Positions 3,679 to 35,427 are shown, counted from the stretch's first letter. The stretch is 55,030 nucleotides of DNA from Candidatus Doudnabacteria bacterium (GCA_020429185.1 JAGQLO010000002.1:1-55030), one strand, 5' to 3'. Notes: a model not told the origin generated them from the letters alone. Numbers and translations are program-made.

Positions 3679-3714
3679 AAAAAAAGAACCCACTGTGACG
3701 CTGGTCTACAGGGG
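3679..3714 (-). terminator. Rho-independent terminator of GC-rich island A ORF
   Basis: On the minus strand: CCCCTGT..ACAGTGGG stem (one bulge) followed by TTCTTTTTTT, immediately after the stop at 3717-3719. Confidence 0.5.
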
Positions 3715-3716
3715 AA

Positions 3717-4823
3717 CTAGAGTGCGGTTGTGTCGAGAAGCCACGTCACGAGAGGAACGAGGCTCTGCAAGCGAGCGTTTCGTTCGCTGTTCGACATGCG
3801 CACTTGCCCTCCAATGTCCGCCGCGATCGTTCCGAAGCAGCGTTCCAGCAGGGCAATGCGCAGCCACCGAGCGCGATGCGTGGCGTCACCTTCTACGCGG
3901 AATGGGTGTAGGTTCCTAACCATGCAATCGATCCACTCCTGCACATCGGTCAGCAGTGTATCGCCGCTACGTCCTTGCCAGTTCGGATGCATGATGCAGC
4001 ATACCCAGATGGCGTACGCCGCTGCGTATCCGGTGGGACGAGGTGCAAGGTGCTCCCAGCTCAGGACGCCCCACTGATGAGACGCAGGCTGATGTTCCGC
4101 AGGGAGCGGCACGAATCGTCGTGGTGACGGAGCGCCGTGTTCCCAGAACATCCGCTTTGCGTCTGTTCCAACGTACCAGCCAATGACGCGGTTTTGCATC
4201 TGCTGCTGAACGTAGGCGTCGAAGTACTGGCTCACGAGGCTCGCACTGCCAGTCTGTTCGCACAGTTGCCACCACCGATCCATGCGGGCCGTGTGCAGCG
4301 CGACTGCCGTCCGTTCCTCTGGTGTCGCAGCACGAAGTGAGGCCATGCCGCCTAGCGTTTGTTGCAGCAGCCACAAGCCCTGAGCGAAGTGTTCTCGCTC
4401 GTTTGCGTGCAGCGTATGATCATGCAGAGGCTCACCGAGATACTCCTCGATGACCCAAGGCCACGCTGCCTGCGTGCCGTAATCGGTGGCGTGTGCCAAG
4501 AGGCGAGGGGCAACGATGGATCTCGTTTCCCTACCGCTCAGGAACTGCCGGGCCACGATCAGGCATTCTGCCGGCTTCTGTAGCCGCTGACGCGGGTCAT
4601 GCCTCAGCTTGAGCACCGCTTGAGCTTGCTGTGTTCCATCAGTGCGTTCAGGCATACTTCCCATGACGCGCGCGATCCGTGGCTTCCCATCGTAGTAGAA
4701 TTGCACGACTGGTTGGCCATCAGGTTCAAAGCCTGCCCGAAGGGCTGCCTCGAACGCTACTTTGAACGCCGGGTCCGTACGGACTCCAGGGTCGTGTTCA
4801 AACAACTCCTCGAACGTTCTCAC
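3717..4823 (-). CDS. Orphan hypothetical protein (GC-rich island A)
   Basis: 368-aa ORF with a GTG start (an in-frame TGA lies 4 codons upstream). One hand-counted line is 65% GC. Shadow ORFs in several frames, typical of high-GC DNA. Own terminator. No motif recognised. Confidence 0.6.
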   Translation of the reverse strand: MRTFEELFEHDPGVRTDPAFKVAFEAALRAGFEPDGQPVVQFYYDGKPRIARVMGSMPERTDGTQQAQAVLKLRHDPRQRLQKPAECLIVARQFLSGRETRSIVAPRLLAHATDYGTQAAWPWVIEEYLGEPLHDHTLHANEREHFAQGLWLLQQTLGGMASLRAATPEERTAVALHTARMDRWWQLCEQTGSASLVSQYFDAYVQQQMQNRVIGWYVGTDAKRMFWEHGAPSPRRFVPLPAEHQPASHQWGVLSWEHLAPRPTGYAAAYAIWVCCIMHPNWQGRSGDTLLTDVQEWIDCMVRNLHPFRVEGDATHRARWLRIALLERCFGTIAADIGGQVRMSNSERNARLQSLVPLVTWLLDTTAL

Positions 4824-4887
4824 GTTGTTGGCTCACTTTCTTCGTCTGCTATAGACGATCGATGTACGTGCGTGTTTGCACGCTTCA

Positions 4888-4905
4888 CAACGTGTGAACA
4901 CGTTG
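4888..4905. promoter_or_regulatory. Perfect 8-bp inverted repeat CAACGTGT-GA-ACACGTTG
   Basis: Lies between the typA stop (4920) and the island A ORF start (4823). The 2-nt spacer argues for a protein-binding palindrome rather than a hairpin. Confidence 0.3.
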
Positions 4906-4919
4906 CTGAATGGAAAGAA

Positions 4920-6716
4920 CTATCGACGACCTGCCTGTTTTCGGGCAGCCTCCGTAAGATGCTGCTTACGGATGCGTACGTTTTCAGGCGTAATCTCCGC
5001 GTATTCGTCGTCTGAAATATACTCGAGAGCGCGTTCCAGTGTCATGTCGAGTGGCGGAGTTAATGCAATAGCGTCATCCGATCCGGCGGCTCGTGTGTTT
5101 GTCAGCTGCTTTCCCTTGATCGGATTGACGGTCATCGTTTCCTTGGAACTTGTCCCGATCACCATGCCTTCATAGACTTCTGTGCCTGGTCCAATGAATA
5201 ATGTTCCACGCTCCTGCAGGTTGTAGAGCGAGAAGCCGAGCGCCTTTCCCTTAACACCAGAAATCATGGATCCTGATTGTCCTCGGTCGATGTTGCCAGC
5301 GTGTGGACCGTATTTTGCAAAGATGTGTGACAGTGTTCCTTCACCTCGAGTCAGTGTGAGGAATTCCATACGGAATCCAAGAAGTCCTCGTGATGGGATG
5401 AGATATTCGAGACGTGTCGATCCATTTTCTGTTTCGAGATTCACCATCTCACCCTTGCGAGCTCCGAGTTTTTCGATCACTGCTCCTGCGTGTTCTTCTG
5501 GCAAGTCGATCACAACGGATTCGTATGGCTCCAACGTGTTTCCGTCTTCTTCACGGAAGATGACTTGGGGCTGGCTTACTTGAAGTTCAAACCCCTCGCG
5601 GCGCATTGTTTCAATCAGAACAGACAGGTGCATTTCACCGCGACCACTTACCTTGAATGTGTCTGAGTTTTCTGGAAATTCTACTTGGAGACCGACATTG
5701 GTTTCGAGTTCGCGCTCAAGTCGATCACGAATTTGTCGGGATGTGACAAGATCTCCCTCTTGTCCTGCAAAAGGGGAGTCGTTTACCAAGAAGTTCATGG
5801 TAAGGGTTGGGGGATCGATCTCGATTGCTGGCAGTGCTTCTACGTCTGCAGATGCCGCGATTGTGTCTCCGGCATCTACGGTTGGAATACCGGCAACCGT
5901 GACGATATCTCCCGCTTCCGCCTCTTCTACTTCTACATGTTGTAGGCCATGGGCAGACTTGATCTGTGTGATCTTGTGAGACTCATGTGTCCCGTCGGGC
6001 TTCAAGAGTGTGACGTTCATGCCTGTCTTGATCGTGCCGTCGTAAATACGTCCTGTTGCTTGTCGCCCCACGAAGTCATCGTAGGCAAGGTTTACGGCCT
6101 GCATGCGCATTGGAGATGCGGTGTCGTTTGATGCTGACGGAACGGTTTCAAGAATGAGGTCAAACAATGGCTTTAGGTCAGTGCTTCCATCGCCAACTTC
6201 TGTATGTGCTGTCCCAGATTTTGCGTTGGTGTAGATATGCTTGAACTCAAGCTGCTCATTGGTGGCACCAAGCTCGGTGAACAGATCGAATGTCATGTCG
6301 AGTACGTCATCCGGGCGAGCAGACGGCTTGTCGATCTTATTGATAACAAGAATAGGCTTTAGGCCTAGTTCAAGCGACTTACGAAGCACAAACTTGGTCT
6401 GCGGCATTGGACCTTCGAAGGCATCAACGAGAAGAAGTACGGAATCTACCATGCGAAGAACACGCTCTACCTCAGAGCCGAAGTCGGCGTGTCCAGGCGT
6501 GTCGACAATGTTGAGTTTTGTTTCGCCAACCATGACAGATGTGTTCTTGGCGTAGATTGTAATTCCGCGTTCTTTTTCTTGGTCGTTACTGTCCATGACA
6601 CGCTCGACAATCTCATCGCGATCAGAAAAGGCCCCAGATTGCTGAAGCATAGCGTCAACCAATGTTGTTTTACCGTGGTCAACGTGGGCGATAATGGCGA
6701 TGTTGCGGAAGTCCAT
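4920..6716 (-). CDS. typA: Translational GTPase TypA/BipA
   Basis: N-terminus [34 protein letters not shown], and the EF-G-like domain order lacking domain IV. About 600 aa as expected. Confidence 0.95.
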
Positions 6717-6787
6717 AAAAAAAGAGGTGTCGGATCAGTAGGTTCTGTCCTATGAAGATGATGGAAATGTATGCTTTTGTCAATCGG

Positions 6788-7402
6788 TTAGCGGCCCGTT
6801 GAAGTGCCTAATCTTCGCTGTAGGCGAAATGCTGCGTATCCTCCAAGAAGTACAACGAGTAGCAATCCCGCGTATCCAAGCGCGAGTGACCAAGTGGGGA
6901 TGGCAAGACGTGCCGGAACGAATGCCATCACAAACGCGGTATACCAAGAGCTGGCTGAAACACCTCCAAGGATGAAGGCGAACATGCGTCTTCGAGTGAG
7001 TTCCGCTGTTGAATCTTGTTTCTTTGAGAACTGAATCTTTGGAAGTGCCGGTGAAATGTAGAGACCGAGAATGAGTCCATTTATGACCAGAACAACAAAT
7101 GCCGACATTTTCGCGACAAATTTGGCTGATTCAAGGAGCACTTCCCAGTTTTGGCTAAAGAGAAGCAGTCCCGAGCTTGCCAAAAGAAGTACGCCAACCC
7201 AGATGACACCGCTGAGTGTTTTGAGGAGTGCATGTTCGTCTGAGCGAACTCGGCGATCGCGAAGCATGCGCACAAATAGAATGTCTGTGATCGTGGCCCC
7301 TCCGAGTCCAATCGCAACTCCAAGAAGATGAACGGCTCTTACGAGCTGATAGTGTGTTGGGTCAGTGAAGAATTCCATGAAGAAATGATAGCATTTCTTC
7401 AT
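6788..7402 (-). CDS. Integral membrane protein of unknown function
   Basis: About 5 predicted TM helices. The start at 7402 would overlap the divergent GIY-YIG start, so the second Met at 7378 (MEFFTD) is the likelier start. Confidence 0.65.
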   Translation of the reverse strand: MKKCYHFFMEFFTDPTHYQLVRAVHLLGVAIGLGGATITDILFVRMLRDRRVRSDEHALLKTLSGVIWVGVLLLASSGLLLFSQNWEVLLESAKFVAKMSAFVVLVINGLILGLYISPALPKIQFSKKQDSTAELTRRRMFAFILGGVSASSWYTAFVMAFVPARLAIPTWSLALGYAGLLLVVLLGGYAAFRLQRRLGTSTGR

Positions 7403-7403
7403 G
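7376..7403. repeat. Perfect 12-bp inverted repeat CATGAAGAAATG-atag-CATTTCTTCATG
   Basis: Arms at 7376-7387 and 7392-7403 are exact reverse complements. It sits exactly at the head-to-head junction of the two divergent genes and contains their candidate ATGs. Confidence 0.6.
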
Positions 7404-7646
7404 CCTTCCCATTCCTACACTGTTTACATGTTGCGCTGTCGTGATGGGTCTTTGTATACGGGTATTGCGCGTAATGTAGAGCAGCGTTTGAAGCAACACG
7501 AAGCGGGGAGCGGTTCGAAGTATGTTCGTTCTCGGTTGCCGGTTCGTCTTGTGTTTACTGAGGGCCATCCGGATCGTTCTTCTGCGCAGCGTCGTGAAGC
7601 AGAGTTAAAATCACTTACACGTAGAGAGAAAGAGTCCCTGCTTTAG
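7401..7646 (+). CDS. GIY-YIG nuclease superfamily protein (UPF0213/YhbQ-like)
   Basis: YTVYMLRCRDGSLYTGIARNVEQRLKQH matches the GIY..YIG core of the small stand-alone family. 81 aa. Confidence 0.85.
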   Translation: MPSHSYTVYMLRCRDGSLYTGIARNVEQRLKQHEAGSGSKYVRSRLPVRLVFTEGHPDRSSAQRREAELKSLTRREKESLL

Positions 7647-8047
7647 AAGAATTCTTTTAGAACGATCGAAAGGTTTTCGGGAGTTGTATAGGTTTTGATC
7701 GTGAAGTTTGGGTCACCTTGGATCATCTCAGAAAGTAGGTCTGTGTGTGTGCCTTTATAGACGCAGAGTGTTGGGATCTTCTGTTGGGACGCATGTGCGA
7801 GAAGAAAGCCAACACCAAGACTTGGAGTCGTAACTTCTGCTACCACGACATCGGCCTTGGTTAACCGAGCAAGTTCACGTGTGTGTACCGATTCTTCACC
7901 TGTTTCTCCATAGAGAGAAAGATGCTCTTCAGCGATGTGCTCGTTTAAGACACTTCCGTATCGTCGCAGTTCCTCTACAAGGTGGGCATAGATCGGTTGT
8001 TCCTTTCGACCTCCTCGAATTGAGGCCGCGAAAAAGATGTTCTTCAT
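7643..8047 (-). CDS. Nucleoside 2-deoxyribosyltransferase-like / DNPH1 (Rcl)-like deoxynucleotide N-hydrolase
   Basis: N-terminal IFFAASIRGGRKEQPIYAHLVEELRRYGSVLNEH parallels the DNPH1 motif (YFCGSIRGGR...). About 134 aa, as for the family. Confidence 0.7.
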   Translation of the reverse strand: MKNIFFAASIRGGRKEQPIYAHLVEELRRYGSVLNEHIAEEHLSLYGETGEESVHTRELARLTKADVVVAEVTTPSLGVGFLLAHASQQKIPTLCVYKGTHTDLLSEMIQGDPNFTIKTYTTPENLSIVLKEFF

Positions 8048-8050
8048 AAC

Positions 8051-8839: not shown

Positions 8840-8871
8840 AGTGTCAATTCAATTTAAACTCAAATCGCGAT

Positions 8872-8900: not shown

Positions 8901-8995
8901 TCTAGTGCATCTATGTGTCAGTATATTTTTTACAACAGTGTTTTTTTGCGTTGTGTCGACATCTTTTGTTCGTCATAGTGGAAGAAATCCCTTCT

Positions 8996-9931
8996 ATGAG
9001 CCATTCCGTCCACGTATTAGATCGTCGTCGTGAAGTGTTGCAACAGGCACCTTCTTTTGTAGCGATTGGAAATGAAATTCTTGCAGGTCTTCGCAGTTCC
9101 GAAGAGCGTATTTCTTCAGCAACTGTCTTGAATCGATTGACGGATTTGAATGCTGACGTTTGGATGTTGTTTCGTGAAATTCGAACATGTTCTGATCGTG
9201 ATGCGTGCAGATTTACCCCTGCGCTTCTTGAGACATTCGAACTTTCTTCGATTCTTGATGCTGAGTGGGGAGTTTCTTCTGTTTCTGCGTTGCACCATCT
9301 GTACCAGAGCGACCAATCGGTTGTTGCTGTAAACGCGCTTGTTGCAAACTGTCTTGCGCGTGCCTTGGAGGCTGCCGAGCAAGATGGTGATGCTGCTCGT
9401 GTTGAACTTCTTTCTGGAGCGGGGTATGGCGCGCGACTCGAACGCGTTTCCTCAATTGCTGATGTTCTTGTTGTGCTAGTTGAACACTGTATCGTCCTTG
9501 CTGATAGCGTTTCTTGTACGCCTGAACAGCTACAAATCCTTCTCGCACTTCGACATCCTGAGGTATTTGAGGAGGCGCAATCCACGTGGAATGTGTCAGA
9601 CTGGGTTCGCTATGCACATCGACACTTTGGAACAGATGTAGCGCAGCGTGGACCCATGTCGTGCTTGCTTTCTCTGCGGTCTGCAATCGATGATGTTCTT
9701 GTCGAATGTCGGAAGCCGGTTGTGACACTCTCAGAGCTGTCAGCTCTTCCGGCAGACGCGACCTTCAACTTTCCCAAGTCGCTTCCGGTTCTTGGGCCAC
9801 TGTTGGCGCAAGTGCTGCTCGAAATCTGCACGGTTGCCAGCGTCTATGCTGTTGATCTTGAGCAGGCTCTTGTTGCGAAACGACTTCGTGCTTCTATTCA
9901 GATTCGAGAAAATCCCTATGCCGTCTCGTAA
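8996..9931 (+). CDS. Hypothetical protein (all-alpha looking), translationally coupled to the next gene
   Basis: ATG at 8996 preceded by GGAAGAA. The 8915 start adds an implausible hydrophobic/Cys-rich leader. The 3' end overlaps the downstream start by 14 nt. Confidence 0.65.
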   Translation: MSHSVHVLDRRREVLQQAPSFVAIGNEILAGLRSSEERISSATVLNRLTDLNADVWMLFREIRTCSDRDACRFTPALLETFELSSILDAEWGVSSVSALHHLYQSDQSVVAVNALVANCLARALEAAEQDGDAARVELLSGAGYGARLERVSSIADVLVVLVEHCIVLADSVSCTPEQLQILLALRHPEVFEEAQSTWNVSDWVRYAHRHFGTDVAQRGPMSCLLSLRSAIDDVLVECRKPVVTLSELSALPADATFNFPKSLPVLGPLLAQVLLEICTVASVYAVDLEQALVAKRLRASIQIRENPYAVS

Positions 9932-10883
9932 CACAAAGGCTGTGATTTCAGAGAAGCGAGCAAGAGATTTTTTTTCGTTTGTGTATGAGCGACAGCGTAT
10001 TTGGTACCGTCGTGAGATTCAAAAACGAGAAGCGCCGTGGACAGATGACGAGCTATTGCAGACATACAAGTTCATCAATATGTACAGAGAGTTGGATCGC
10101 TGCACGAAATACATCATGAACGCTGTTGAGTCCTTGCATGCAGATCGTGAAGCGCTGTTGTTAAACTTCATCTTCTACCGTTTTTTCAACCTAGATCACT
10201 TGTACGAAGATCTTGGTGTTGCTCCGTTCAGGCGACTTGATGCGAAAACGCATACAAGACTTGTTCAAGGATTTTCGCGCATGCGAGAGAAGGGAAAGCC
10301 TCTGTTTAATAATGCGTATGTCATTTCGCCTGGACACGATCGTAGCCCCAAGCATCTCACGATCCTGAAGGGGTTGCGTGTCGTTTCCGCCTCGATTCAA
10401 GGACTCATAAAGCAAATCGACGCAGCAGAAACGCCAGAAGATGCCTTTCTTGAGATACAAACAGTTCCACTTGTCGGTCCGTTTCTTGCGTGTGAAATTT
10501 GGACTGATTTTTCCTATGTAGATGGATTTGTCCAAGGTTGGACTGATAATGACTTCGTGAATGTCGGTCCTGGTGCGAAATGGGGGCTAGAATTATTGGC
10601 AGGTCAAAAACTTACTCGATCTGACCAACAGCGTTTGCTGCAGTGGCTTCATCAGAAGCAAGAAGACGTTTTGCCCGCCATTCACAAAGTTCTCGGTGCC
10701 ACACCTTCCTGGGAAACGATTTCCTATCAGGAAGCAGCTTCAAATACTCCGTTTCTTTCACTTACAAATGTTGAAGGTGCACTGTGTGAGTATCGAAAGT
10801 ATTTAAACCTCTCGAGTGGAAAGGGGAGGAGGCGATACTTTGAGCCCAGTGACCTCCAAGCGCGTGATTCGCTTCGCGCCTAA
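9918..10883 (+). CDS. aGPT-Pplase-like protein (alpha-glutamyl/putrescinyl thymine pyrophosphorylase family, often annotated 'nucleotide kinase domain protein'); tentative
   Basis: The N-terminal block FFSFVYERQRIWYRREIQKREAPWTDDELLQTYKFINMYRELDRCTKYI matches my recollection of the family signature (W..ER..I..r....PWTdD.iL..y.F.NvyRe.DR.T). Assignment is from memory, not from a search. Confidence 0.55.
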   Translation: MPSRNTKAVISEKRARDFFSFVYERQRIWYRREIQKREAPWTDDELLQTYKFINMYRELDRCTKYIMNAVESLHADREALLLNFIFYRFFNLDHLYEDLGVAPFRRLDAKTHTRLVQGFSRMREKGKPLFNNAYVISPGHDRSPKHLTILKGLRVVSASIQGLIKQIDAAETPEDAFLEIQTVPLVGPFLACEIWTDFSYVDGFVQGWTDNDFVNVGPGAKWGLELLAGQKLTRSDQQRLLQWLHQKQEDVLPAIHKVLGATPSWETISYQEAASNTPFLSLTNVEGALCEYRKYLNLSSGKGRRRYFEPSDLQARDSLRA

Positions 10884-10911
10884 AAAAAAGAGACCAGTCA
10901 GGATGACCGGT
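10881..10911 (-). terminator. Rho-independent terminator of island B ORF
   Basis: Minus strand: GACCGGTC-atcct-GACTGGTC (7/8 bp) followed by TCTTTTTTTT. On the plus strand no T-run follows, so it is effectively one-directional. Confidence 0.6.
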
Positions 10912-10959
10912 CGTTGCCGACGTCAGACCTCGTTGGGTTGTGAGTCGTGAAGGTGCAGT

Positions 10960-11634
10960 CTAGTGCGTGATGCAGCTCGCTCCGACGAGCGTCGCACGTA
11001 CGGTGCGGCTGTTCGGATGCATGGGCTGAGCACGCTCACCCGAAGAGAAGGTGCAGTTCCACGCCAGGCGGATGCTACCTACCCGCTCAGGCAAGAGTCG
11101 TTCGATCGCGTTCTTGCCCTCGGCCAAGCTCGAGGACACCACCGCGAAGCTCCAGCGCTTGTGGCGCGGATCCGGCGTGGGGAACGCCTTCAGGACCTTC
11201 GCCGCCTCACTGGTGAGGCAGGTCCAGCCGGGATACATGCCCGGCTGAGGACAAACCGCCAGGCCTCGCTGTCCGCGAACCTTCCAACGGCGCATCAAGC
11301 CCTGTTGGGCCCCGTGTCGCTGGAGTTCTGCGTACGGCAACCCGTTGGAGGGTCGTGTGACCACCTCGGTTTGACCCAGGTAGAGTCGCGCGAGCCCCTC
11401 TTCCTGACTCCGCCACTCGGTGTCTGGGACCCGTACACCAGCCGGAGCGATCACGAAGATGTCCACGACATTGGCAGCGCGGTTTCGTTGTACGAAGTAG
11501 CATGCCCGATCGGCTCGGGCGCGCTTCGAGGCATCACACGGCGCCACCTCGGGCGCCTGCATCTTCTTCACAGACTGGGCCGCGCCGCAGCCCGTGAAGA
11601 TGAGGGCCATCAGGCCCAGAATCATGGTGCGCAT
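10960..11634 (-). CDS. Orphan predicted lipoprotein (GC-rich island B)
   Basis: Start at ATG 11634, preceded by GGAAGGAG 4 nt upstream. Signal plus lipobox MRTMILGLMALIFTGC. 63% GC on one hand-counted line. The 244-aa plus-strand ORF over it looks like a shadow ORF. Confidence 0.65.
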   Translation of the reverse strand: MRTMILGLMALIFTGCGAAQSVKKMQAPEVAPCDASKRARADRACYFVQRNRAANVVDIFVIAPAGVRVPDTEWRSQEEGLARLYLGQTEVVTRPSNGLPYAELQRHGAQQGLMRRWKVRGQRGLAVCPQPGMYPGWTCLTSEAAKVLKAFPTPDPRHKRWSFAVVSSSLAEGKNAIERLLPERVGSIRLAWNCTFSSGERAQPMHPNSRTVRATLVGASCITH

Positions 11635-11798
11635 AGGTCTCCTTCCTGCGCGTCTTCCTGCAGAGCAGGCCGGAAAACATGCCACGTATGCGACTGATTG
11701 TCAATACGTCTGCATTCACCTCGTTCTGTTGTGTTTGTTGAAGGTGATGTCTGCTATGGTTTATGGGCAAGCTTCACACACAACAATCACTACAAGGT

Positions 11799-13066
11799 AT
11801 GGGCGCATCATTTGCATCACGGGGCTTCAGACGAGTTTCTGTAGCTGTCTTTGGTTGTCTTGGTCTTGTGGTGATCGCTCTCATGGGGATGTGGTTTCTA
11901 TTTTTTGGAGCAGGTGATCCTGCACCGCTTCCGGAAGCTCCAGAAGAAAACCAGTTTGGGTTTTTAACTGGTGGGCCATTTTTGCAGCAGCGCGTTGAGT
12001 TTCAAGCTGTTCGAAGGAGTGGCGCGGCATGGGCGCGTCCTCATCCAGGTGTCTTTTCATGGACAAGATGCAGAAGAGCGCAGGTTCTGAAATCGATTTT
12101 TCTGACACGGATCGCCTTGTGAAGGCAGCTGGCCAAGAGGGTGTCTCGCTTTTGATCACGCTGTGGCCCTATGTGGAATGGGATGCAACTGCGTCAGAAG
12201 ATCGCTGTACGGTTGAAGATGGGGATCCATTTTCACGAGATATCGGTGTGTACCGTTGTAATCCTACAGATTGGGACGCGTATCGTGCGTGGGTCATTGC
12301 TGTCGTAGAGCGATACGATGGAGACGGTATTGATGACATGGAAGGATTGCGTGTTCCTGTGAAGCATTGGGAAGTTATGAATGAGCCAGACTTGGCTGAT
12401 CCTGTTGCTCCAGATTCACCGATTCGTGCAGGTACACCGGGCCCAGGGGAAGGCTCTGAAGATGTTCGTCATCCACCAGTTCCTACGCCTCCAACACCTG
12501 AAGGAGGCTCGCTTCGATTTTATCTAGGTAATGCCTCGGACTATGCAGAACTTCTTATTCGAACGAATTCTGCCATAAAAGCGGCAGATTCAGATGCGCG
12601 CACGGTCATTGCAGGAGCGGCTGGCGGCTCTGATACGTTCCTCGATTTTTATCGAGAGGTATTTGAAAACGAGGAGGCTCGTGCTGCATTCGATATTGGG
12701 AATGTGCACTGTATTTCCAATGACTATGTTTCCTCGTTCAATGCTGTGCCGTATCGAGAGATGCTTGGTGAGTTTGGTCTAGAGGATCGACCGTTTTGGG
12801 TCACAGAAGCAGAAGCATTTGTGTCGAGTGATGCAGCGGTAACGGCAACAGCAATTCGACGCGCAACACAGAACGCGCTTGATGCAGGTGCGGAACGCAT
12901 CTTCTATACGACACCAAATTTTGAACAACCTGCTGGAGGAAACGAGATTCCACCTCTTTCGGCGCTTGATCAAACATTCGCAAATCTTGCTGCAGATGCT
13001 GATCTTTCGGAGGCAATCACACAGCCAGACGAAGTCTATGCACGTATACTTGCTGAATTCCTCTAG
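11799..13066 (+). pseudogene. Clan GH-A (GH5-like) glycoside hydrolase with N-terminal membrane anchor, interrupted by a -1 frameshift near 12062
   Basis: Frame 0 (11763/11799..12122) encodes the TM anchor and ...AAWARPHPGVFSW. Frame 2 continues DKMQKSAGSEIDFSDTDRLVKAAGQEGVSLLITLW ... KHWEVMNEPD (NEP acid/base motif). Reading G12062 twice joins them as FSW-DKMQ. Otherwise only 12029/12059..13066 is translatable. Confidence 0.6.
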
Positions 13067-13187: not shown

Positions 13188-14300
13188 TTGAACCGCTCAT
13201 CGAAATGGAAGTTGCCGATTCAACCAGGATTCTGCTTGTTCCTGGTGCTCGGCATGCCGGTCACGTACGTGTATCTACGTAGTCTGAATCTGTCAGATCC
13301 GGTTTCCGTGCTGGCGTCTGTGATGGTCCCAAGTTTGTATGTGCCTGCGATCATGGTTGTGGGCATGCTCTGGATGGCACTCACCGTGCTGACAGCGCTT
13401 GGTTTGGGGCTGCTGCTTTGGCCGTTGAAGGCATTTCAGATTACTCGGTACAACCTTGCGAACTGGGCGTACTTCATGGGTCCGCTCGGGTTCCGTTGGG
13501 TAATCTTTCCGCTCATGGGCATCACGCTCAAAGTGGATCGGTCCGAGTTGAAGCCGATTCGACGAACTGACTTCGTGAAGTGCTTGTCGATGCATCCATC
13601 TACATGGGGTCTTGGCTCTGTCACGTGGCCGCTCGTGGCGTTTGGGATGCCCAAGCCACTGATGACGGCGATCAAGTCGACGCTGTTTACCCTGCTCCGC
13701 CTGGGAATGCAGATTATCGATGCCGGCTGCGTCGTAGATCGAGAAGATCGCGCTCAAAGTACGGGGGCGATCCGTCGCGGCGCCTCTCGTCTTAAGCGAG
13801 GGGTCGTGACTGTGTACGTCGACGGCCACCGTCCCACAAGGAAGAGGATTACGGATGCTCGTGCGTTCTATGTCGATCGAGGTTGTGAAGATCTTGCTGC
13901 GCAAGTACGTACTGCTCGTCCAAGACCTGCCGGAACGCGCGCCTTGTTGACGCTCAATCCAGGAGCACGTGTAATCGTGTGCTTCGTCACTGCGTCTGGA
14001 TACGATCCTGGACTGACCGGGATCTTCCGAATGGCATTCGGCGGTATGATCTACGTGAAGCTGTTTGACCCGCCAGAGCCTCCTGAAGTTGTGGGTCGAG
14101 ACCGGAGTACTTCGATGGCAGATGTCGCGCAGTGGCTTGATCAAGTCTTTGTGACGACTGGTGGTGCCTGGATCGATGCCATGAAGGGGTGGCATCGGCG
14201 CCATCCGCTTCTCGGGACTCTCATGCCTGCCCCTGCGTCGAAGCATGTTCGCTGGTGGCAACGACCCGCGCAGCTGCTTGGGTGGCGTCCGCGTCCGTAA
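13188..14300 (+). CDS. Orphan membrane protein (GC-rich island C)
   Basis: TTG start 5 nt after GAGGGGGA. 3-4 N-terminal TM helices, then a soluble Arg-rich domain. 63% GC on one hand-counted line. The antisense 418-aa ORF is R/H/S/P-rich and looks like a shadow. Confidence 0.6.
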   Translation: MNRSSKWKLPIQPGFCLFLVLGMPVTYVYLRSLNLSDPVSVLASVMVPSLYVPAIMVVGMLWMALTVLTALGLGLLLWPLKAFQITRYNLANWAYFMGPLGFRWVIFPLMGITLKVDRSELKPIRRTDFVKCLSMHPSTWGLGSVTWPLVAFGMPKPLMTAIKSTLFTLLRLGMQIIDAGCVVDREDRAQSTGAIRRGASRLKRGVVTVYVDGHRPTRKRITDARAFYVDRGCEDLAAQVRTARPRPAGTRALLTLNPGARVIVCFVTASGYDPGLTGIFRMAFGGMIYVKLFDPPEPPEVVGRDRSTSMADVAQWLDQVFVTTGGAWIDAMKGWHRRHPLLGTLMPAPASKHVRWWQRPAQLLGWRPRP

Positions 14301-14434
14301 TGGACGCTCTTTCATGGTGCAAGTATGACCGGCTTGTAACTGATCCGTTGCGCGACGGGCGAAGTGGTCAATCCCGCTGCGTTCTTGCGTGTGATGCAGG
14401 CCCGAATCGACGCCGCGTACGATTTGGTCGGCTA

Positions 14435-14464
14435 GTTCGTTCATCTGAACGGACTTTTTCTTTT
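14435..14464 (+). terminator. Rho-independent terminator of island C
   Basis: GTTCGTTC-atct-GAACGGAC (one G-U pair) followed by TTTTTCTTTT. It lies ~135 nt after the stop, and the GC-rich composition continues up to it. Confidence 0.6.
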
Positions 14465-17745: not shown

Positions 17746-17788
17746 AAAAACGGGTAGACTCGTGTGGTCTATCCGTTTTGTTTTCTTT
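17746..17788. terminator. Bidirectional-type rho-independent terminator after the RND gene
   Basis: AAAAA, then ACGGGTAGAC-tcgtgtg-GTCTATCCGT (10 bp, one G-U), then TTTGTTTTCTTT. Confidence 0.7.
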
Positions 17789-17799
17789 ACGTACACGAC

Positions 17800-19272
17800 G
17801 TGTCGAAGCGTATTGCCATTATCGGAGCTGGATTTGGCGGCATTTCCGCAGCCGCTCTTCTCGCTCGCCAGGGCCATCAGGTCACTGTATTTGAAAAGAA
17901 CGAACATGAAGGTGGTCGTGCCAGCATGTGGTATGAACGGGGATTCTCGTTCGACATGGGACCATCCTGGTATCTCATGCCCGATGTGTTTGAGAAGTTT
18001 TTTGCCAAGTTTGGGAAGCGTCCTTCCGAGTACTACACACTATCGCGCCTTGATCCTTCGTATCGCATGTTTTTTGGAGACGGAGCTCCTCTCGATATTT
18101 CCTCGAGTTTGGAGGAAAACAAGAAGCTTTTTGACGCCCTAGAGCCCAATGGAGGAGCTAAGTTACAAACGTATCTCGATCAAGCTGAGTATCAGTATGA
18201 TTCAGCTATGGAGACGTTCGTGGAACGTGACTACCAGTCAGTAATGGACTTCTTGGATTGGCGGCTTGCAAAAGAGGGGATTCGCATGCGCATGTTCAAT
18301 AGTCTCGACTCCCATGTCAGCCGTTTGTTTTCAAATGACCGAGCAAAGAAAATTCTGGAATATACCACCGTGTTTTTGGGCGGAAACCCAAAAAACACCC
18401 CAGCTCTCTACGCATTAATCGCGCATGTCGACTTTAATCTGGGTGTTTGGTATCCGCAGGGCGGTCTTCATGCTGTCGCAACCGGAATGATGCGTCTTGC
18501 GCAAGAGCAAGGCGCAACCTTTGTGTTCAATGCTCCTGTTGAGCAGATTCTCGTTTCTGACGGTAAGGCGAGCGGCGTTCGGGTGAATGGTGTTGATGAA
18601 CCATTTGATCTTGTTGTTTCCAATGCTGACTATCAGTTTACCGAATCAGCACTCCTTGCTCCTGAGCATCGATCCTATTCTGATGCCTATTGGGAATCGC
18701 GAACGATGGCACCTTCCGGGTTTGTGCTTTTTTTGGGTCTTGATAAGCGCATGGATTCGCTGAAGCATCATAATCTGTTCCTACAGAACGACTGGTTTGC
18801 TCATTTTGAGGAAATTTTTGATCGTCCTGCTTGGCCAGACGCACCTTCGTACTATGTGTGCGCCCCTTCTCTTACAGATCCTTCAGTAGCACCGGAAGGA
18901 AAGGAGGCGCTGTTTGTCTTGGTGCCTGTTGCGTCTGGCTTAGAAGACACAGATGCGATACGTACTCAATTTAGGGATAAGATTATTGCTGACATGGAAC
19001 GTGTCACAGGAGAATCAATTTCCGATCATATTGAAGTTGAGCGTATCTTTTCGCAACGCGACTTCACGGAGCGATATGGCGCTTTTCAAGGGACAGCTCT
19101 TGGGCTCGCTCATACACTTCGTCAGACTGCTATTTTAAGGCCGTCCATGCGGAGTAAGAAGGTGCAACACCTCTTCTTTACCGGGCAATATGTCCACCCT
19201 GGAATTGGCGTGCCGATGGTAGTGATTGCCTCCACCATTCTCTCGGATTCGATCGAAAAGCAGTATGGTTGA
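17800..19272 (+). CDS. crtI: Phytoene desaturase-family oxidoreductase (CrtI-like)
   Basis: FAD-binding fold KRIAIIGAGFGGISAAALLARQGHQVTVFEKNEHEGGRA, and the C-terminal FTGQYVHPGIGVP motif typical of CrtI. GTG 17800 chosen because the track start at 17764 lies inside the upstream terminator. Confidence 0.85.
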   Translation: MSKRIAIIGAGFGGISAAALLARQGHQVTVFEKNEHEGGRASMWYERGFSFDMGPSWYLMPDVFEKFFAKFGKRPSEYYTLSRLDPSYRMFFGDGAPLDISSSLEENKKLFDALEPNGGAKLQTYLDQAEYQYDSAMETFVERDYQSVMDFLDWRLAKEGIRMRMFNSLDSHVSRLFSNDRAKKILEYTTVFLGGNPKNTPALYALIAHVDFNLGVWYPQGGLHAVATGMMRLAQEQGATFVFNAPVEQILVSDGKASGVRVNGVDEPFDLVVSNADYQFTESALLAPEHRSYSDAYWESRTMAPSGFVLFLGLDKRMDSLKHHNLFLQNDWFAHFEEIFDRPAWPDAPSYYVCAPSLTDPSVAPEGKEALFVLVPVASGLEDTDAIRTQFRDKIIADMERVTGESISDHIEVERIFSQRDFTERYGAFQGTALGLAHTLRQTAILRPSMRSKKVQHLFFTGQYVHPGIGVPMVVIASTILSDSIEKQYG

Positions 19273-27786: not shown

Positions 27787-27972
27787 ATGATCTGCAGTTT
27801 ATCCCTTTTTTATGGCTTTTTCTAGTATATTGCGTGTTCGCGAAAAGGACTCCATGAAGCCATTTAGCGGCGACTGCACAAATGCACCTAGAGCAACGCC
27901 GAGCGCGCACTGATGGACCTCTGCGTCCTCCCTTGGCAAGCGACCGCCTGATCCTTTTCGCCACTATGGCGC

Positions 27973-28004
27973 GCCACCCCGGCACTGGGTGGCTTTTTCT
28001 TTTT
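27973..28004 (+). terminator. Rho-independent terminator T1 (left copy of a duplicated terminator)
   Basis: GCCACCC-cggcact-GGGTGGC followed by TTTTTCTTTTT. It lies ~190 nt into the priA upstream region, after a GC-rich segment. Confidence 0.65.
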
Positions 28005-28112
28005 CCTTTGTCCTTAATCCTTGATTTTTTATTGTTTTGTGTTTTGATACGCACACTGTTTGCCAGCCAAAGAAAGGGCACTCAGGTGAAACCGATTCGT
28101 AGGAAGCGGGGC

Positions 28113-28772
28113 ATGCCTCCGTTTCGTGTCGCACTGTTCGGTGGGGCTGTCCGGCTGTACCCCCAGGTGATCGGGGGCGTTGCGAAGGTGGCGCAAGGCC
28201 GGAGATCTGTTCAGCTGCGCATGCCAGTCATGGATCGCACAACTGCAGAGTGTCTGCAGATGACGCAACGTGAGTTGGTAGGCCGAGGGACGAGCGGCGC
28301 ATCGATAGACGCTCTTCTCGCGGTCTCGGTTGTATACCGAGGAGCCGGGGAGGGACCCGTTCCGGTTCGTATGCACAACCTCTCTGAATGTGTCGTGGAA
28401 GGCATGATCGGTAGTCCTCCAGCACAGGCTCAGCTAATGCTCGCACTCACGTCGATGCTACTGGGCGGCTGGAGGGATGCTCCGCTCCCGCTCAATGGCG
28501 AACCGCATCTCGCGGTGTGCGTCACGAGCGATCTGAGCAAGGAACCGTTCTATCCGGCACTCGTGCAGTCAATGTCGCCTTCCGCACCTTCTGATGGCAT
28601 TCTGAAGTCTTCGCAACGATTCCTGATCGTCTCTGACGATGCTGAAACTCAGCAAGCGATCGCCGCACTGCTGCTGACCTCGGACGTCGGCAGCCGTGGC
28701 TTCTTCGAAGGCCCGGATCGTGTTGGTGACGTCATTACAGCGATCTCGAGAATGGCATCGTTGTCGGTCTAG
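28113..28772 (+). CDS. Orphan hypothetical protein (GC-rich island D)
   Basis: ATG 28113 lies 6 nt after AGGAAG (GTG 28086 is an alternative). The track start at 27882 would read through terminator T1 and a T-rich spacer. 62% GC on one hand-counted line. Confidence 0.55.
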   Translation: MPPFRVALFGGAVRLYPQVIGGVAKVAQGRRSVQLRMPVMDRTTAECLQMTQRELVGRGTSGASIDALLAVSVVYRGAGEGPVPVRMHNLSECVVEGMIGSPPAQAQLMLALTSMLLGGWRDAPLPLNGEPHLAVCVTSDLSKEPFYPALVQSMSPSAPSDGILKSSQRFLIVSDDAETQQAIAALLLTSDVGSRGFFEGPDRVGDVITAISRMASLSV

Positions 28773-28796
28773 ATCTGTCTAAGATGTAACCCCGTC

Positions 28797-28826
28797 GCCG
28801 CCCCGGAATGGGTGGCTTTTTCTTTT
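28797..28826 (+). terminator. Rho-independent terminator T2 (right copy)
   Basis: GCCGCCC-cggaat-GGGTGGC (one G-U) followed by TTTTTCTTTTC. Near-identical to T1. Confidence 0.7.
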
Positions 28827-29399: not shown

Positions 29400-30247
29400 C
29401 TATTCTCGGCATTCCTATTAGTCCACTGACGACATCTCGTGTTCAAGAGGTGGTATTGGAGATGCTCAAAGATGCGGATTCATCTGTTTCCCGCCGTACG
29501 ATCACAACACCAAATGCAGAAATGATCCTTTCTGCTACCACGCCAGCGATTCGTTCTGCCGTTGCAGATGTGCGACTCCGCCTTCCAGATGGAACAGGCC
29601 TGCAATGGGCTGCAAGCTATCTATTAGGAGCGAGCCGGATGGGTATTGTGGGGGTGCTATTTCTTCCTATTTGGCTTTGTGTTTCCGTCCTTCTCTACAC
29701 ATTTGTTCCTGCTTGTAAGCGGTGGTATTTGCCAGAGCGCATCACTGGAAGCGACACGCTCCTTACCATTTCTCGCATATGCGAACACTATAAGTGTTCG
29801 GTATTTTTGCTCGGTTCATATGTTGCGGATGAGGCAGCGGCTGCACTTCAGGACGCGTATCCCGATCTTGTCATTGCTGGAGCACATGAGGGAACGCCTC
29901 ACCAGGAAGATGAACCAGCTATTCGGGAGCGTATCAATGCCTCCGGAGCACATGTTCTCTTTGTAGCGTATGGAGCTCCGGCACAAGAGCAATGGATTCA
30001 ACGTAATCTTCCATACCTGCCAAACATACGCATTGCCATGGGAGTGGGGGGCGCCTTTGATTTTCTCTCCGGAGCTCGTACCCGCGCTCCTCAATGGATG
30101 CAGCAAGTCAGTCTGGAGTGGTTATGGCGTCTTTTCCACGAGCCATCTCGTGTAGGCCGTATCTTTAATGCAACTGCTCGTTTTACATGGAGGATCTTTA
30201 TAGAAGGATACCGCGTCGCTCTTGATCCACGACGTCTGAACCTCTAG
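29396..30247 (+). CDS. WecB/TagA/CpsF-family glycosyltransferase (GT26) with an inserted hydrophobic segment
   Basis: TPNAEMIL, LPDGTGL, and YGAPAQEQWI...GVGGAFDFLSG...RAPQWMQQVSLEWLWRL. About 40 extra residues (GIVGVLFLPIWLCVSVLLYTFVP) after the PDG motif. Confidence 0.82.
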   Translation: MTILGIPISPLTTSRVQEVVLEMLKDADSSVSRRTITTPNAEMILSATTPAIRSAVADVRLRLPDGTGLQWAASYLLGASRMGIVGVLFLPIWLCVSVLLYTFVPACKRWYLPERITGSDTLLTISRICEHYKCSVFLLGSYVADEAAAALQDAYPDLVIAGAHEGTPHQEDEPAIRERINASGAHVLFVAYGAPAQEQWIQRNLPYLPNIRIAMGVGGAFDFLSGARTRAPQWMQQVSLEWLWRLFHEPSRVGRIFNATARFTWRIFIEGYRVALDPRRLNL

Positions 30248-31807: not shown

Positions 31808-31857
31808 AGCTCAAGAATTTACAACGGAGAAAGAAAAGACAGGGAAGAGATTATTCA

Positions 31858-31884
31858 CAAAGGAGGTGCAGCAACCCTCCTTTG
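31858..31884 (+). terminator. Stem-loop downstream of gltX (possible terminator)
   Basis: Perfect 9-bp stem CAAAGGAGG/CCTCCTTTG with a 9-nt loop. No clear T-run, so termination function is uncertain. Confidence 0.35.
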
Positions 31885-31925
31885 TGCGATTCACCCCTCT
31901 TTTAAACATGTGCTAGACTTTCCTC

Positions 31926-33245: not shown

Positions 33246-33253
33246 AGACTGAC

Positions 33254-33292
33254 AAAAAAAACATCTAGAAAAATTGACTAGATGTTTTTTTG
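33254..33292. terminator. Bidirectional rho-independent terminator
   Basis: AAAAAAAA, then ACATCTAG-aaaaattga-CTAGATGT (perfect 8 bp), then TTTTTTT. Confidence 0.85.
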
Positions 33293-33344
33293 TTGTTTAA
33301 TGCAATGTTCGTAGTCGTACCTTGATAGGGAAAGGGAAGGGGAA

Positions 33345-33920
33345 ATGCGCGTACGTACTGTCGTCATTCTTACCGGATTGGCGTCGGCCTTACTGATTCT
33401 GGCCTTCGCGATGTCGCTGTCGATCATGCAGATGCATGACATGCTGAAGTATGCCATGGGCGGCACCGACATCTTGCCGGGCGTGCCGGCCTGCATTCCG
33501 GGGTACAACTCCTGGGACCGGCCATGTATCGTTGATGACGACCGCTCTCAGATGGCTCTGATCACCACTGACGACTTTGGCAGCGAAATTGCCATGATGA
33601 CGCTCGTGGTTCGCATCGATGTCATACATCACGATTCGGACGTAGATCGTGACTTCGTGATCCAGACGATCAACGACGCGTGGAGCCGTGATGAGCGCAG
33701 AAACACTGAACACCCTGTCTGCGTTCTCACTGACGAGATTGCAACGGAGTCATTCGGCGTTGCTGGCACAGAAGTGCATGGGCACGTCTACAGCTTCATC
33801 TGTTCGATGACACTGGATGCCAAGATCTACCCACTGAATGAAGATGGGTCGCAAGGCTCTCAGATGATCGTGCCCCACAGTTGTCCGCCCGAACGCACTG
33901 CCGAGCCGATTAAGATCTAG
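33345..33920 (+). CDS. Orphan secreted/membrane-anchored protein (GC-rich island E)
   Basis: ATG preceded by GGAAGGGGAA. N-terminal hydrophobic signal MRVRTVVILTGLASALLILAFA. Hand-counted lines are 52-63% GC, less extreme than the other islands. Confidence 0.6.
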   Translation: MRVRTVVILTGLASALLILAFAMSLSIMQMHDMLKYAMGGTDILPGVPACIPGYNSWDRPCIVDDDRSQMALITTDDFGSEIAMMTLVVRIDVIHHDSDVDRDFVIQTINDAWSRDERRNTEHPVCVLTDEIATESFGVAGTEVHGHVYSFICSMTLDAKIYPLNEDGSQGSQMIVPHSCPPERTAEPIKI

Positions 33921-33936
33921 CTGATCGTCGCTCGCA

Positions 33937-33960
33937 GTGTTCTTTTTTTTGTAAGAACAC
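33937..33960 (+). terminator. Hairpin after island E ORF (atypical terminator candidate)
   Basis: Perfect 8-bp stem GTGTTCTT/AAGAACAC, but the T-run lies in the loop rather than after the stem. Confidence 0.3.
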
Positions 33961-34267
33961 GTACAGGGAGATTGTTCTACGTATTCAAAACAACATATAA
34001 CAGGGGAGTGTCAATAGTTTGCAAAAGGGTTTCTAAAGCAGGTATGAAGAACGTAGAGAGACAGGCCGGAGTACCGTAAAGCCAACAGGTTGGGAGGAAT
34101 GCATAAAACAAAGTAACAAAAAGAAGGCCAGAAAAATTGCGTAGATATATAGAGCAATGCAGTGAATCAATCTGGATTTCTTCATTTGTAAGCCATTCAT
34201 TGTGTCGTAGAACATACATTGTGCGACATGATTAACCTGGAGCCTAGGTACCTTCCCTTGTCCTGAT

Positions 34268-34297
34268 TTTGTCTCTTTCTCGTTTGTCTCTTTCTCG
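34268..34297 (+). repeat. Perfect tandem duplication of the 15-mer TTTGTCTCTTTCTCG
   Basis: 34268-34282 equals 34283-34297 exactly. Embedded in the pyrimidine-rich non-coding region. Confidence 0.9.
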
Positions 34298-34706
34298 TAC
34301 GATTTCCCTTTGTCCATTTATTCCTTGTAGGCATGCAGCCCGTTCTCTCTTGTCGTACTTCCTCTCTCTTTCTTTTCTGTCCTCCCCTTAGGTTACTCAG
34401 TCCTCTCTGGAGTCATTTTCGTGGAACACTTCTGTGTGTTTCTAAGGACTTCTCTCAAATGCTCATTTTTGATGTTTTCTAGATTCCCTGTTTTTTTGTG
34501 TCTTTTTTTTCTGTTGCGTGTGTTTTGAAAATGTTTGATCGCGTTTCGGCTTTCCTTGTTCTGGAATCTATCTTCAGAAAAATGCACCACTCCCCTGAAA
34601 CCCACTATTTTTGTAACACAATCTTTTTCTCATATGTCAAATAAGGTAGTGTTTCTTGTTGTTTTGCGCTGTTCCGGATAACTCACCAGTCGTTCGCTCT
34701 CTTGCG

Positions 34707-34924
34707 TGTTATACTTCACGTGTTCGTTCAGTTTTGCAACGCGAAAGGGGTGCCATTCCCCTGCTGTACCGCAACCGTGATGCCCTTCGGGGATAAGCCG
34801 GGTCGCCGTTGTTTGACTGCCCCACTGTGAACTCCGCGGAAAACGGAGTAAGGGATATTCCTTTGCACTTCACTTCAGGGCAGTCCTAACGGACTGCTCT
34901 TTCGTTCCCGGGGAGGAACCTATC
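34707..34924 (+). promoter_or_regulatory. Candidate extended -10 promoter plus ~200-nt hairpin-rich 5' leader of island F ORF
   Basis: - TGtTATACT at 34707-34715.
- Local hairpins: AGGGG-tgccatt-CCCCT (34746-34762), CCC-UUCG-GGG (34783-34792), CTCCG-cggaaaa-CGGAG (34832-34848) and AGGGCAGTCC-taac-GGACTGCTCT (34877-34900).
- GTTCC-cgggga-GGAAC (34904-34919) overlaps the SD GGAGGAA. Confidence 0.35.
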
Positions 34925-35368
34925 ATGAACCGACGTGACTTCTTGCGACGGGCTGGCGCTGCCACCAGCTGGCTGTGTCTCGGTGCGCCGGGACTTCTGG
35001 CCGGCTGTGGGGAAGCTCATCCCGGCAACCGAACCGTTTACATCGACGGTTTTGCCCTCAAGGAGTGGCTCATCTTGGAGGCTGGCTCCGAGGGCGGGAC
35101 TGTCGCGACTGTCACATCTCGATCGCTCGACATGCGCTTCTTCCAAGGCGCGTTCGAACAGCGCCGCGATGGTCGTCGCGTTGACACGCTTGTGCTCCGT
35201 GAGCATCTGCGTAGCGATCCCGAACTGCCACGTTCCGCGACCGGCGACTGGCTGTTCGGCATCGTGGGCCGCGATGGCCAGGCCCGGGTCCCGATGACTG
35301 CAGTCGACCACGTCCACAGTGTGGAGGTGCAGGCCGGTGAATCGGTCGTGTGGTACCTCGGCGCTTAA
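34925..35368 (+). CDS. Orphan Tat-signal lipoprotein (GC-rich island F)
   Basis: MNRRDFLRRAGAA (twin-arginine RRxFLR motif), a hydrophobic stretch and the LLAGC lipobox. Strong SD GGAGGAA 6 nt upstream. 67% GC on one hand-counted line. Confidence 0.7.
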   Translation: MNRRDFLRRAGAATSWLCLGAPGLLAGCGEAHPGNRTVYIDGFALKEWLILEAGSEGGTVATVTSRSLDMRFFQGAFEQRRDGRRVDTLVLREHLRSDPELPRSATGDWLFGIVGRDGQARVPMTAVDHVHSVEVQAGESVVWYLGA

Positions 35369-35382
35369 GACGTTCTTTTCTT

Positions 35383-35427
35383 CTCACCTACCGTGACTCC
35401 GTCACTCAGGTGAGTTTTTCTTTTCTT
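35383..35427 (+). terminator. Rho-independent terminator of island F
   Basis: Outer stem CTCACCT/AGGTGAG enclosing the inner hairpin GTGAC-tcc-GTCAC, followed by TTTTTCTTTTCTT. Confidence 0.65.

Follow-up and report, generated by a model that had tools for sequence, protein, structure and literature searches.

Replacement-type flexible islets occupy a fixed position between conserved genes, have sharp edges and a content that diverges far more than their flanks, encode mostly envelope or exported products, and do not need mobility genes, as they are exchanged via homologous flanks. Phage morons are single genes with their own regulatory signals and terminator, wedged into a prophage and deviant in composition. 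Horizontally acquired genomic islands are likewise atypical in composition and are associated with tRNA genes, direct repeats and an integrase, and integron gene cassettes are units of a single open reading frame (ORF) that form arrays and depend on intI, attI and attC. Foreign or accessory DNA in bacteria tends to be rich in AT, and its deviant composition should be lost over time. Here, we describe six GC-rich islands, designated A to F, in a 55,030-bp stretch (referred to below as the window) that makes up the entire contig JAGQLO010000002.1 (GCA_020429185.1, Candidatus Doudnabacteria bacterium) of a bacterium of the candidate phyla radiation (CPR, Patescibacteria), with an overall GC content of 0.498. 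The islands are real, apparently self-contained, single-gene transcription units, and in the three cases tested (A, F and D) they are inherited parts of the genome. We tentatively read them as long-resident, foreign-derived replacement islets, giving this reading as a whole a nearly balanced chance of being right.

An earlier inspection of the sequence alone (the original prediction) had reported six high-GC islands in a mid-GC backbone, and windowed GC, GC at third codon positions (GC3) and GC at four-fold degenerate sites all deviated in the islands, confirming that observation. Outside the islands, windows of 600 nt had a GC content of 0.490 ± 0.020, with a maximum of 0.535, and all 600-nt windows above 0.55 fell at five of the six islands; E stayed below 0.55 and peaked at 0.563 in a 400-nt window. 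Within the limits at which the islands had been called originally, the GC content was 0.598 for A, 0.630 for B, 0.569 for C, 0.576 for D, 0.540 for E and 0.602 for F. Likelihood change-points delimited GC-rich cores at 3689-4796 (A), 10907-11673 (B), 13241-14432 (C), 28106-28715 (D), 33328-33908 (E) and 34740-35365 (F), each matching the extent of a single transcription unit to within ~50 nt, with composition steps of 10-17 GC points. The left edge of D, originally placed at 27860, took in non-island DNA and an upstream terminator. The GC3 of the island ORFs was 0.61-0.74, as compared to 0.37-0.505 in backbone genes, and the GC content at four-fold sites was 0.64 in the islands (0.59-0.74 individually), as compared to 0.43 in the backbone. 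As the excess is seen at GC3 and at four-fold sites, it is not a by-product of amino-acid composition. Additionally, the island proteins are enriched in Arg, Pro, Trp and Cys and depleted of Lys, Glu and Asn, which fits a past in GC-richer DNA.

When codon usage was modelled on five of the islands and the model applied to the sixth, the called frame ranked first of the six possible frames in 6/6 islands (chance probability ~2e-5), which thus have a codon pattern in common. Each island is one ORF, coding in the called frame, as had been predicted. The six proteins are not related to each other, four of them (B, C, E and F) have features of exported or membrane proteins, and the islands disrupt no gene, every flanking gene being intact; in these respects, too, the original description was accurate. 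Its claim that five of the six islands end with a recognisable terminator needs some tempering: the terminators of B, C and D were found by a terminator scan, those of A and F are weaker and were recognised by eye, and that of E is atypical. A sigma-70 scan for island promoters performed no better than on shuffled sequences. The name of orphans, under which the islands had been introduced, does not set them apart, since five ordinary-GC genes of the window (10-681, 6788-7402, 8915-9931, 12029-13066 and 35402-36148) are likewise without a Pfam hit.

Contigs from ENA, MEGAHIT and Logan, derived from several samples and three assembly pipelines, were 99.9-100% identical to the window. For A, C and E, both ends were spanned by these independent contigs, and for D and F one junction each, the right and the left, respectively. 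Moreover, diverged siblings hold islands in the same place: A in L012, F in L180, and D in L181 and L182. The sibling data comprise one far sibling for A, one near sibling for F and close strains for D; in every sibling tested the island was present, and no empty site was observed. The sequences L012 (83.5% identical to the window in BipA DNA) and L180 (94% from S49 to F) represent two relatives present in one Logan dataset, SRR33375164, which would lend itself to a three-taxon comparison. One low-coverage ENA scaffold (L179, positions 1023-1421) is chimeric, with island A fused at window position 3928 to DNA of 72% GC from an unrelated organism. Very high-GC organisms share the samples, and low-coverage contigs can mis-join at GC-rich sequence. 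An alternative C-terminus of protein A (P0004) was rejected as a real variant, as it derives from the chimeric scaffold.

The evolutionary behaviour of the islands could be followed best at A. The whole transcription unit of this island, comprising a promoter spacer, the coding sequence for 368 aa (3717-4823) and a terminator stem, lies at 3681-4919 on the minus strand and abuts a gene for tRNA-Gln(CTG) on the plus strand (3566-3640; ARAGORN, Rfam 64 bits). The order BipA-A-tRNA-Gln is kept in the far sibling L012, in which the protein identity is 94% for BipA and 55% for A. The C-terminus of BipA shows a nonsynonymous divergence (dN) of 0.04 and a synonymous divergence (dS) of 1.04 between the two, and the dN of A, 0.41, is ten times that of BipA. 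With an omega of 0.18-0.4, A is still under purifying selection. Judging by this shared arrangement, A is older than the split at which BipA has a dS of ~1. At four-fold sites in conserved codons, 69.6% of 115 sites differed between the two copies of A, as compared to 73.1% expected if the sites were randomised, whereas the respective values for BipA were 51.1% and 72.3%. The GC content at the compared sites was 0.65 and 0.63 in the two copies of A, and 0.39 and 0.42 in those of BipA, ~100 nt away. The silent sites of A are saturated and yet 62-65% GC in both lineages. Under a simple exponential decay of the F81 type applied to these 115 silent sites, an acquisition before the split followed by passive decay to 0.43 would need an ancestral four-fold GC above 1, or still 0.96 at the upper 95% bound of similarity; restricting the analysis to securely aligned codons did not change this result.

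The silent divergence of A exceeded that of BipA 2.3 times (p 0.009), and it was not confined to the coding sequence. The promoter spacer and the terminator stem of A were unalignable with L012 or 64% identical, whereas the DNA that begins with the terminator T-run, continues across the tRNA-Gln terminator and reaches into the tRNA gene was ~90% identical. Because the non-coding parts diverge too and the flanks are ~90% identical, the hyper-divergent block corresponds to the whole A unit (~3681-4919) and has sharp edges. This is the pattern to be expected of a cassette replaced between conserved flanks. At the junction of BipA and A, contig L002 (positions ~1200-1260, corresponding to window position ~4915 at the BipA stop codon) carries three extra tandem copies of an 18-nt unit, GTCGATAGTTCTTTCCAT, 54 nt in total, which may be a short repeat of variable copy number or else a stutter of the assembly. 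We considered this excess as a structural variant of the island, but it is an expansion of the 18-nt tandem repeat instead.

Among 5.8 billion sequences, protein A had a single close relative (P0020, 55% identity), and an exhaustive profile search identified 24 more full-length relatives of 20-26% identity. Two relatives could be assigned a named source, a Kerfeldbacteria metagenome-assembled genome (MAG) and an unclassified bacterial MAG, and the family appears to be restricted to the CPR as far as sources are named. Protein A itself has no Pfam hit, but 5/10 of its distant relatives score above the gathering cut-off of the APH family PF01636 (23.2 bits). An alignment-based AlphaFold (AF2) model of A reached a pLDDT (predicted local distance difference test) of 88.4 and a pTM (predicted template-modelling score) of 0.89, and a Foldseek search with it retrieved 4ocu, 3ats, 2q83 and choline kinases (probability 1.0, E down to 3e-8, TM ~0.6), the matched folds being those of N-acetylhexosamine kinase (NahK), Rv3168, YtaA and choline kinases. 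As modelled, protein A has the bilobal APH/choline-kinase fold. It also shares with this group the beta-3 Lys, kept in the motif AVLK, but differs from it in the residues of the catalytic positions. In the family consensus these positions read HGH.KP and TDF.H, which is already atypical, and in A and P0020 they read HGAPSPRRF and LSWEH (within EHGAPSPRRF and VLSWEH, as spelled in the A coding sequence). The HxD...N catalytic loop and the DFG-like Mg-binding Asp are lost in A, which has HGA...R and SW instead. Protein A is probably a pseudokinase. Originally, no recognisable motif had been seen in any of the six proteins; the kinase fold makes A an exception, and B to F matched no family in the libraries scanned beyond the twin-arginine translocation (Tat) signal of F.

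Island F had been described as a single ORF with a Shine-Dalgarno sequence (SD), a Tat signal and a lipobox. It does contain a single ORF, but its first part resembles a riboswitch. This 5' leader, at 34718-34859 on the plus strand, matches the adenosylcobalamin (AdoCbl) riboswitch model RF01482 (clan CL00101) over its full length (1-149/149), with E 4.8e-4 in a search of the whole window on both strands, although its score of 40.5 bits is below the gathering cut-off of 50. The aptamer lies on the same strand as the gene and ends ~65 nt from the ATG at 34925, and the predicted folding of the leader is more stable than that of shuffled sequences (z -3.0). As L180 begins at window position 34912, the orthologous leader lies outside the recovered sequence. 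The F leader is probably a cobalamin riboswitch, and the strong SD of F could be sequestered by it. A literature search retrieved no paper joining CPR and cobalamin riboswitches. The coding sequence of F (34925-35368, plus strand, 147 aa) specifies a Tat signal (TIGR01409, 17.7 as compared to a cut-off of 16.7) and a lipobox, LLAGC, at residues 24-28, which is LLTGC in L180. Unlike typical genes behind AdoCbl riboswitches, F is not a recognised gene of B12 transport or metabolism but that of an orphan Tat-lipoprotein. A single-sequence AF2 model of the mature protein was unusable (pLDDT 51). Because its leader is a probable cobalamin riboswitch, F is a candidate B12-regulated surface lipoprotein.

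In the near sibling L180, S49, the orthologue of 35402-36148 and F follow in the same order, with 94% nucleotide identity. The F gene is intact there and 91.2% identical in nucleotides; 11 of its codon changes are nonsynonymous and 24 are synonymous, a ratio similar to that of its ordinary-GC neighbour (13 to 25). At four-fold sites, 23.8% differed in F, as compared to 11.6% in the flanks (Fisher p 0.008), which gives a Jukes-Cantor silent ratio of 2.26, near the 2.3 obtained for A and BipA. The riboswitch and the F gene have the same island composition, as would be expected if the regulated unit moved in one piece.

The remaining islands likewise hold one gene each. Island B encodes a putative lipoprotein of 224 aa on the minus strand (10960-11634), preceded by the SD GGAAGGAG and equipped with a signal peptide containing the lipobox LIFTGC. 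The single lipobox ORF with an SD was predicted correctly, but its start had to be corrected to the ATG at 11634. An intrinsic terminator, a 9-bp stem followed by a T-run, lies at 10892-10912 on the same strand. The coding sequence of C (13188-14300, plus strand, 370 aa) specifies a polytopic N-terminus with hydrophobic segments at residues 15-33 and 38-83 and at least three membrane helices, followed by an Arg-rich soluble half. The GC-rich block of C reaches up to an intrinsic terminator at 14434-14455 (plus strand). The E gene (33345-33920, plus strand) encodes 191 aa with an N-terminal signal anchor at residues 1-31. Island D was rightly called as one ORF, but its true form is that of 219 aa at 28113-28772 (plus strand), as indicated by the change-points and the codon model, and it specifies a soluble protein of no known family. 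The gene is 100% conserved in the strain variants L181 and L182. The region upstream of D has no Rfam match and a fold z of -0.7, and a structured RNA or attenuator there was rejected on these grounds. In the same strain variants (L182 and L181), 20/25 of the differences from the window are clustered within 290 nt of WecG (29873-30160), and D, LigT and most of GltX are identical; the cluster is probably a homologous-recombination tract in the population, located in the backbone.

Proteins B to F had no match in Pfam, NCBIfam (beyond the Tat signal of F), PHROGs, PADLOC, PDB sequences or viral contigs, the search space for B to E being plasmids, viral contigs, PDB and hidden Markov model libraries. 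A literature search retrieved nothing relevant on GC-rich islands in the CPR.

The ends of the islands carry few signatures of insertion. Flanking direct repeats were significant for B and D only (p~0.003 each, and each unique in the window). At B, two 35-nt copies on the plus strand, 27/35 identical, lie at 10927-10961 and 11718-11752, and the repeat starts 15 nt from a terminator. At D, the repeat is a duplicated intrinsic terminator whose copies, 29/32 identical, enclose the island: the upstream copy, at 27972-28003 (plus strand), reads GCCACCC-loop-GGGTGGC and then TTTTTCTTTT, and the downstream copy, at 28796-28826 (plus strand), serves as the terminator of D. A 29-nt repeat pair around E failed the significance test. 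Island A abuts tRNA-Gln, but the end of the tRNA gene is not duplicated. The ends of the six islands share no motif. With repeats only at B and D and no shared motif, there is no evidence of one common insertion mechanism.

Compared to the known systems, the islands resemble replacement-type flexible islets in what is seen at A against L012, namely a fixed position between conserved genes, sharp edges and a content much more diverged than the flanks, and in their mostly envelope or exported products. They differ in being single genes of 0.6-1.2 kb, and not multi-gene glycosylation or O-antigen clusters, and in being GC-rich, and not AT-rich. Moreover, replacement is deduced at one locus, and close strains show no hypervariability of D and F. 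With phage morons they share the single gene, the wedged position and the deviant composition, and probably also own regulatory signals and a terminator, but they sit in a cellular chromosome among housekeeping genes, their neighbours being FtsX, BipA, AcrB, PriA, LigT, GltX and M23, among others, and not in a prophage, and no relatives were found in PHROGs or viral contigs. Like horizontally acquired genomic islands, they have an atypical composition, A lies by tRNA-Gln, and B and D have imperfect direct repeats; here, however, each holds a single gene, there is no integrase, four of the six lack repeats and siblings are filled wherever tested. As for integron gene cassettes, the islands are also single-ORF units, and D is bounded by a hairpin-forming repeat, but there is no intI, attI, attC or array, and the islands are dispersed over 32 kb and apparently have their own promoters or leaders.

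How such units arose can be approached by excluding an assembly or construct artefact, in which high-GC reads would have been stitched into a CPR contig. Although the L179 scaffold is a real chimera of this kind at island A, we give this explanation, which had been raised in the original prediction, practically no credence: it is refuted by the junction-spanning contigs of several samples and three pipelines and by the diverged orthologous arrangements in L012, L180, L181 and L182, and the islands are coherent genes with SDs, signal peptides, a riboswitch and terminators. That the six result from recent, repeated insertions of promoter-to-terminator cassettes by an undescribed terminator-targeting mechanism without an element-encoded recombinase is improbable as well. 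The duplicated terminator around D, the terminator-adjacent repeat of B, the position of all six islands in intergenic DNA beside the ends of genes and the lack of a recombinase in the window speak for it. However, A predates the split with a BipA dS of ~1, diverged siblings or strains also have F and D, no flanking repeats occur at A, C, E and F, and the silent-site composition varies among the islands (C3 of 0.43 in F as compared to 0.225 in C), which argues against a single source or event. As A, F and D are present in every sibling tested for them, a recent or sporadic insertion is unlikely for these three islands, and a mechanism targeting terminator-proximal DNA, as had been suggested, is left with weak support from D and B. 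The idea of repeated acquisition from a high-GC donor fares better in part: the units are distinct, self-contained and sharply bounded, B and D bear repeat scars and A lies by a tRNA gene, but no donor was found, the relatives of A are, as far as named, from the CPR and, in the three cases examined, of native GC, and the islands are old and inherited. Nothing pointed to the host of an episymbiont as the donor.

In the reading that we prefer, small foreign gene cassettes would have come from GC-richer genomes and settled, on separate occasions, in intergenic DNA next to terminators or tRNA genes, and would probably have been kept for their accessory envelope, exported or regulatory proteins: the degenerate kinase-fold protein of A, the lipoproteins of B and F, the latter behind a probable B12 riboswitch, the polytopic membrane protein of C, the signal-anchored protein of E and the soluble orphan of D. 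The cassettes then appear to turn over whole between conserved flanks, like replacement-type flexible islets, and such a turnover would account both for the large excess of divergence in the A unit over its flanks and for its high GC content, if its alleles dwell in a GC-richer pool. The foreign origin, the replacement by flank recombination and the functions of B to F are what we infer. Several observations weigh against this reading. The silent sites of A are saturated but GC-rich, so its GC content is not that of a passively decaying relic of one acquisition, and the reservoir of GC-rich A alleles that replacement requires is unsampled, no GC-rich donor or pool being visible in 15 billion proteins. 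The close homologue of A is one in 5.8 billion sequences, the others are ~20-26% identical, the named sources are CPR MAGs, and the three relatives whose contigs were examined have the GC content of their own genomes (0.34 and 0.33, 0.52 and 0.57, 0.43 and 0.42, respectively). Protein F has no homologue outside its own cluster, B to E had no match in a tblastn search of plasmids, and none of the six islands matched PHROGs, PADLOC or viral contigs. The dinucleotide signature of the islands is near that of the backbone except for AA/TT and AT (delta* 73 as compared to a null of 31 ± 10), TA, CC/GG, CG and GA/TC being nearly identical. The flanking-repeat test was not significant for A, C, E and F. 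Finally, as had been noted originally, no mobility gene is present in the 55 kb: a Pfam scan of 36 window ORFs (the six island ORFs and 30 others) was negative for domains of integrases, transposases and recombinases, and the Pfam labels of genes called on independent contigs, covering most of the remaining window, included no mobility domain. In a less probable alternative, the islands are native, lineage-restricted genes whose GC is generated and held by a locus-specific GC-favouring substitution regime, e.g., GC-biased gene conversion at hot spots of recombination or some other process limited to the transcription unit, that also raises the silent rate. Such a regime would account for four-fold sites of A that are nearly random between the lineages (0.696 as compared to 0.731) and still 0.63-0.65 GC next to BipA at 0.39-0.42, for a silent-divergence excess that is similar at two depths (2.3 times for A and 2.26 times for F), for a family of A that has ordinary GC elsewhere and is CPR-restricted as far as named, and for a dinucleotide signature mostly common to the backbone; homologous recombination does occur in the population, as the WecG tract suggests. 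On the other hand, known effects of biased gene conversion on GC3 in bacteria amount to a few points and not to ~20, and the known cases are far weaker and less sharply bounded than this regime would have to be. The edges are sharp and coincide with single transcription units, the repeat scars of B and D and the tRNA gene by A look like insertions, the one tract of recombination that was seen belongs to a backbone gene of ordinary GC, with D being invariant, and the argument draws on 115 and 84 silent sites in two pairs of genes. That the segments evolve under a substitution regime of their own, with a ~2.3-fold silent turnover, an equilibrium of 62-65% GC as compared to ~43% in the backbone and edges sharp to tens of bases, is in itself rather doubtful; the cause would be either locus-targeted GC-favouring mutation or conversion or a continual import of alleles from an unsampled GC-rich gene pool, in both cases affecting fast-evolving accessory genes with mostly exported products.

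What deviates here is GC-rich DNA limited to individual transcription units, and at A, the one locus that allows the test, the deviation persists after a full turnover of silent sites. If this generalises, the islands would offer a natural system for telling passive amelioration apart from active maintenance of GC in a very small, streamlined genome of the symbiont type, with biased gene conversion, selection and cassette replacement as the candidate forms of maintenance. If it does not, they are still well-documented old single-gene islets in a CPR genome. Their candidate envelope and exported proteins, which include a degenerate kinase family restricted to the CPR as far as named and a possible B12-regulated surface lipoprotein, may mediate contacts of CPR bacteria with hosts or phages.

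The lineage itself is poorly sampled, as the best matches of BipA among GTDB species representatives (~62%) and of GltX in JGI metagenomes (52%) show; no close sibling was found in either collection. A tblastn search of the six island proteins against 80 BipA loci of GTDB representatives gave no match. Taxonomic labels disagree: near-identical proteins are assigned to Candidatus Andersenbacteria in NCBI, and the best GTDB matches of BipA are MAGs of Peribacteria, Peregrinibacteria and Gracilibacteria. In a Peribacteria co-assembly (L013, 21.8 kb around BipA), multi-kb blocks of 0.44, 0.50 and 0.60 GC were seen, with BipA in the 0.60 block, which may reflect either a co-assembly chimera or large-scale mosaicism and is unlike single-gene islets. 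GC heterogeneity at distant Peribacteria loci was rejected as a parallel to the islands, since it consists of these multi-kb blocks and, in L035, of a GC-rich stretch that is a P-type ATPase gene.

The backbone of the window encodes housekeeping and envelope biosynthesis functions, namely RF-1, FtsE/X, BipA, an AcrB-type pump, PriA, Def, Fmt and GltX, as well as an M23 peptidase, PyrG, L9, LigT and glycosyltransferases. Between E and F, the stretch 33960-34720 has a GC content of 0.42, is pyrimidine-rich on the plus strand and contains no convincing gene, the ORFs of the minus strand being just 70-94 aa long; the promoter from which the riboswitch and F are transcribed presumably lies here. 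The same interval contains a perfect 15-nt tandem repeat at 34268-34298. Beside island B, a gene at 9792-10883 (plus strand) has a strong Pfam match to HMUDK_hel (5-hydroxymethyldeoxyuridine, 5-hmdU, DNA kinase; E 3e-49), which acts in thymidine hypermodification of the phage type, and ~2 kb from it a nucleoside 2-deoxyribosyltransferase is encoded at 7643-8047 (minus strand); together they may point to modified bases in the DNA of a CPR bacterium or to the remains of a phage. Additionally, an amine-oxidase/phytoene-desaturase-like gene followed by a fusion of squalene/phytoene synthase and UbiA prenyltransferase occupies 17764-20941 (plus strand), and such isoprenoid/carotenoid-type chemistry is unusual in a reduced CPR genome.

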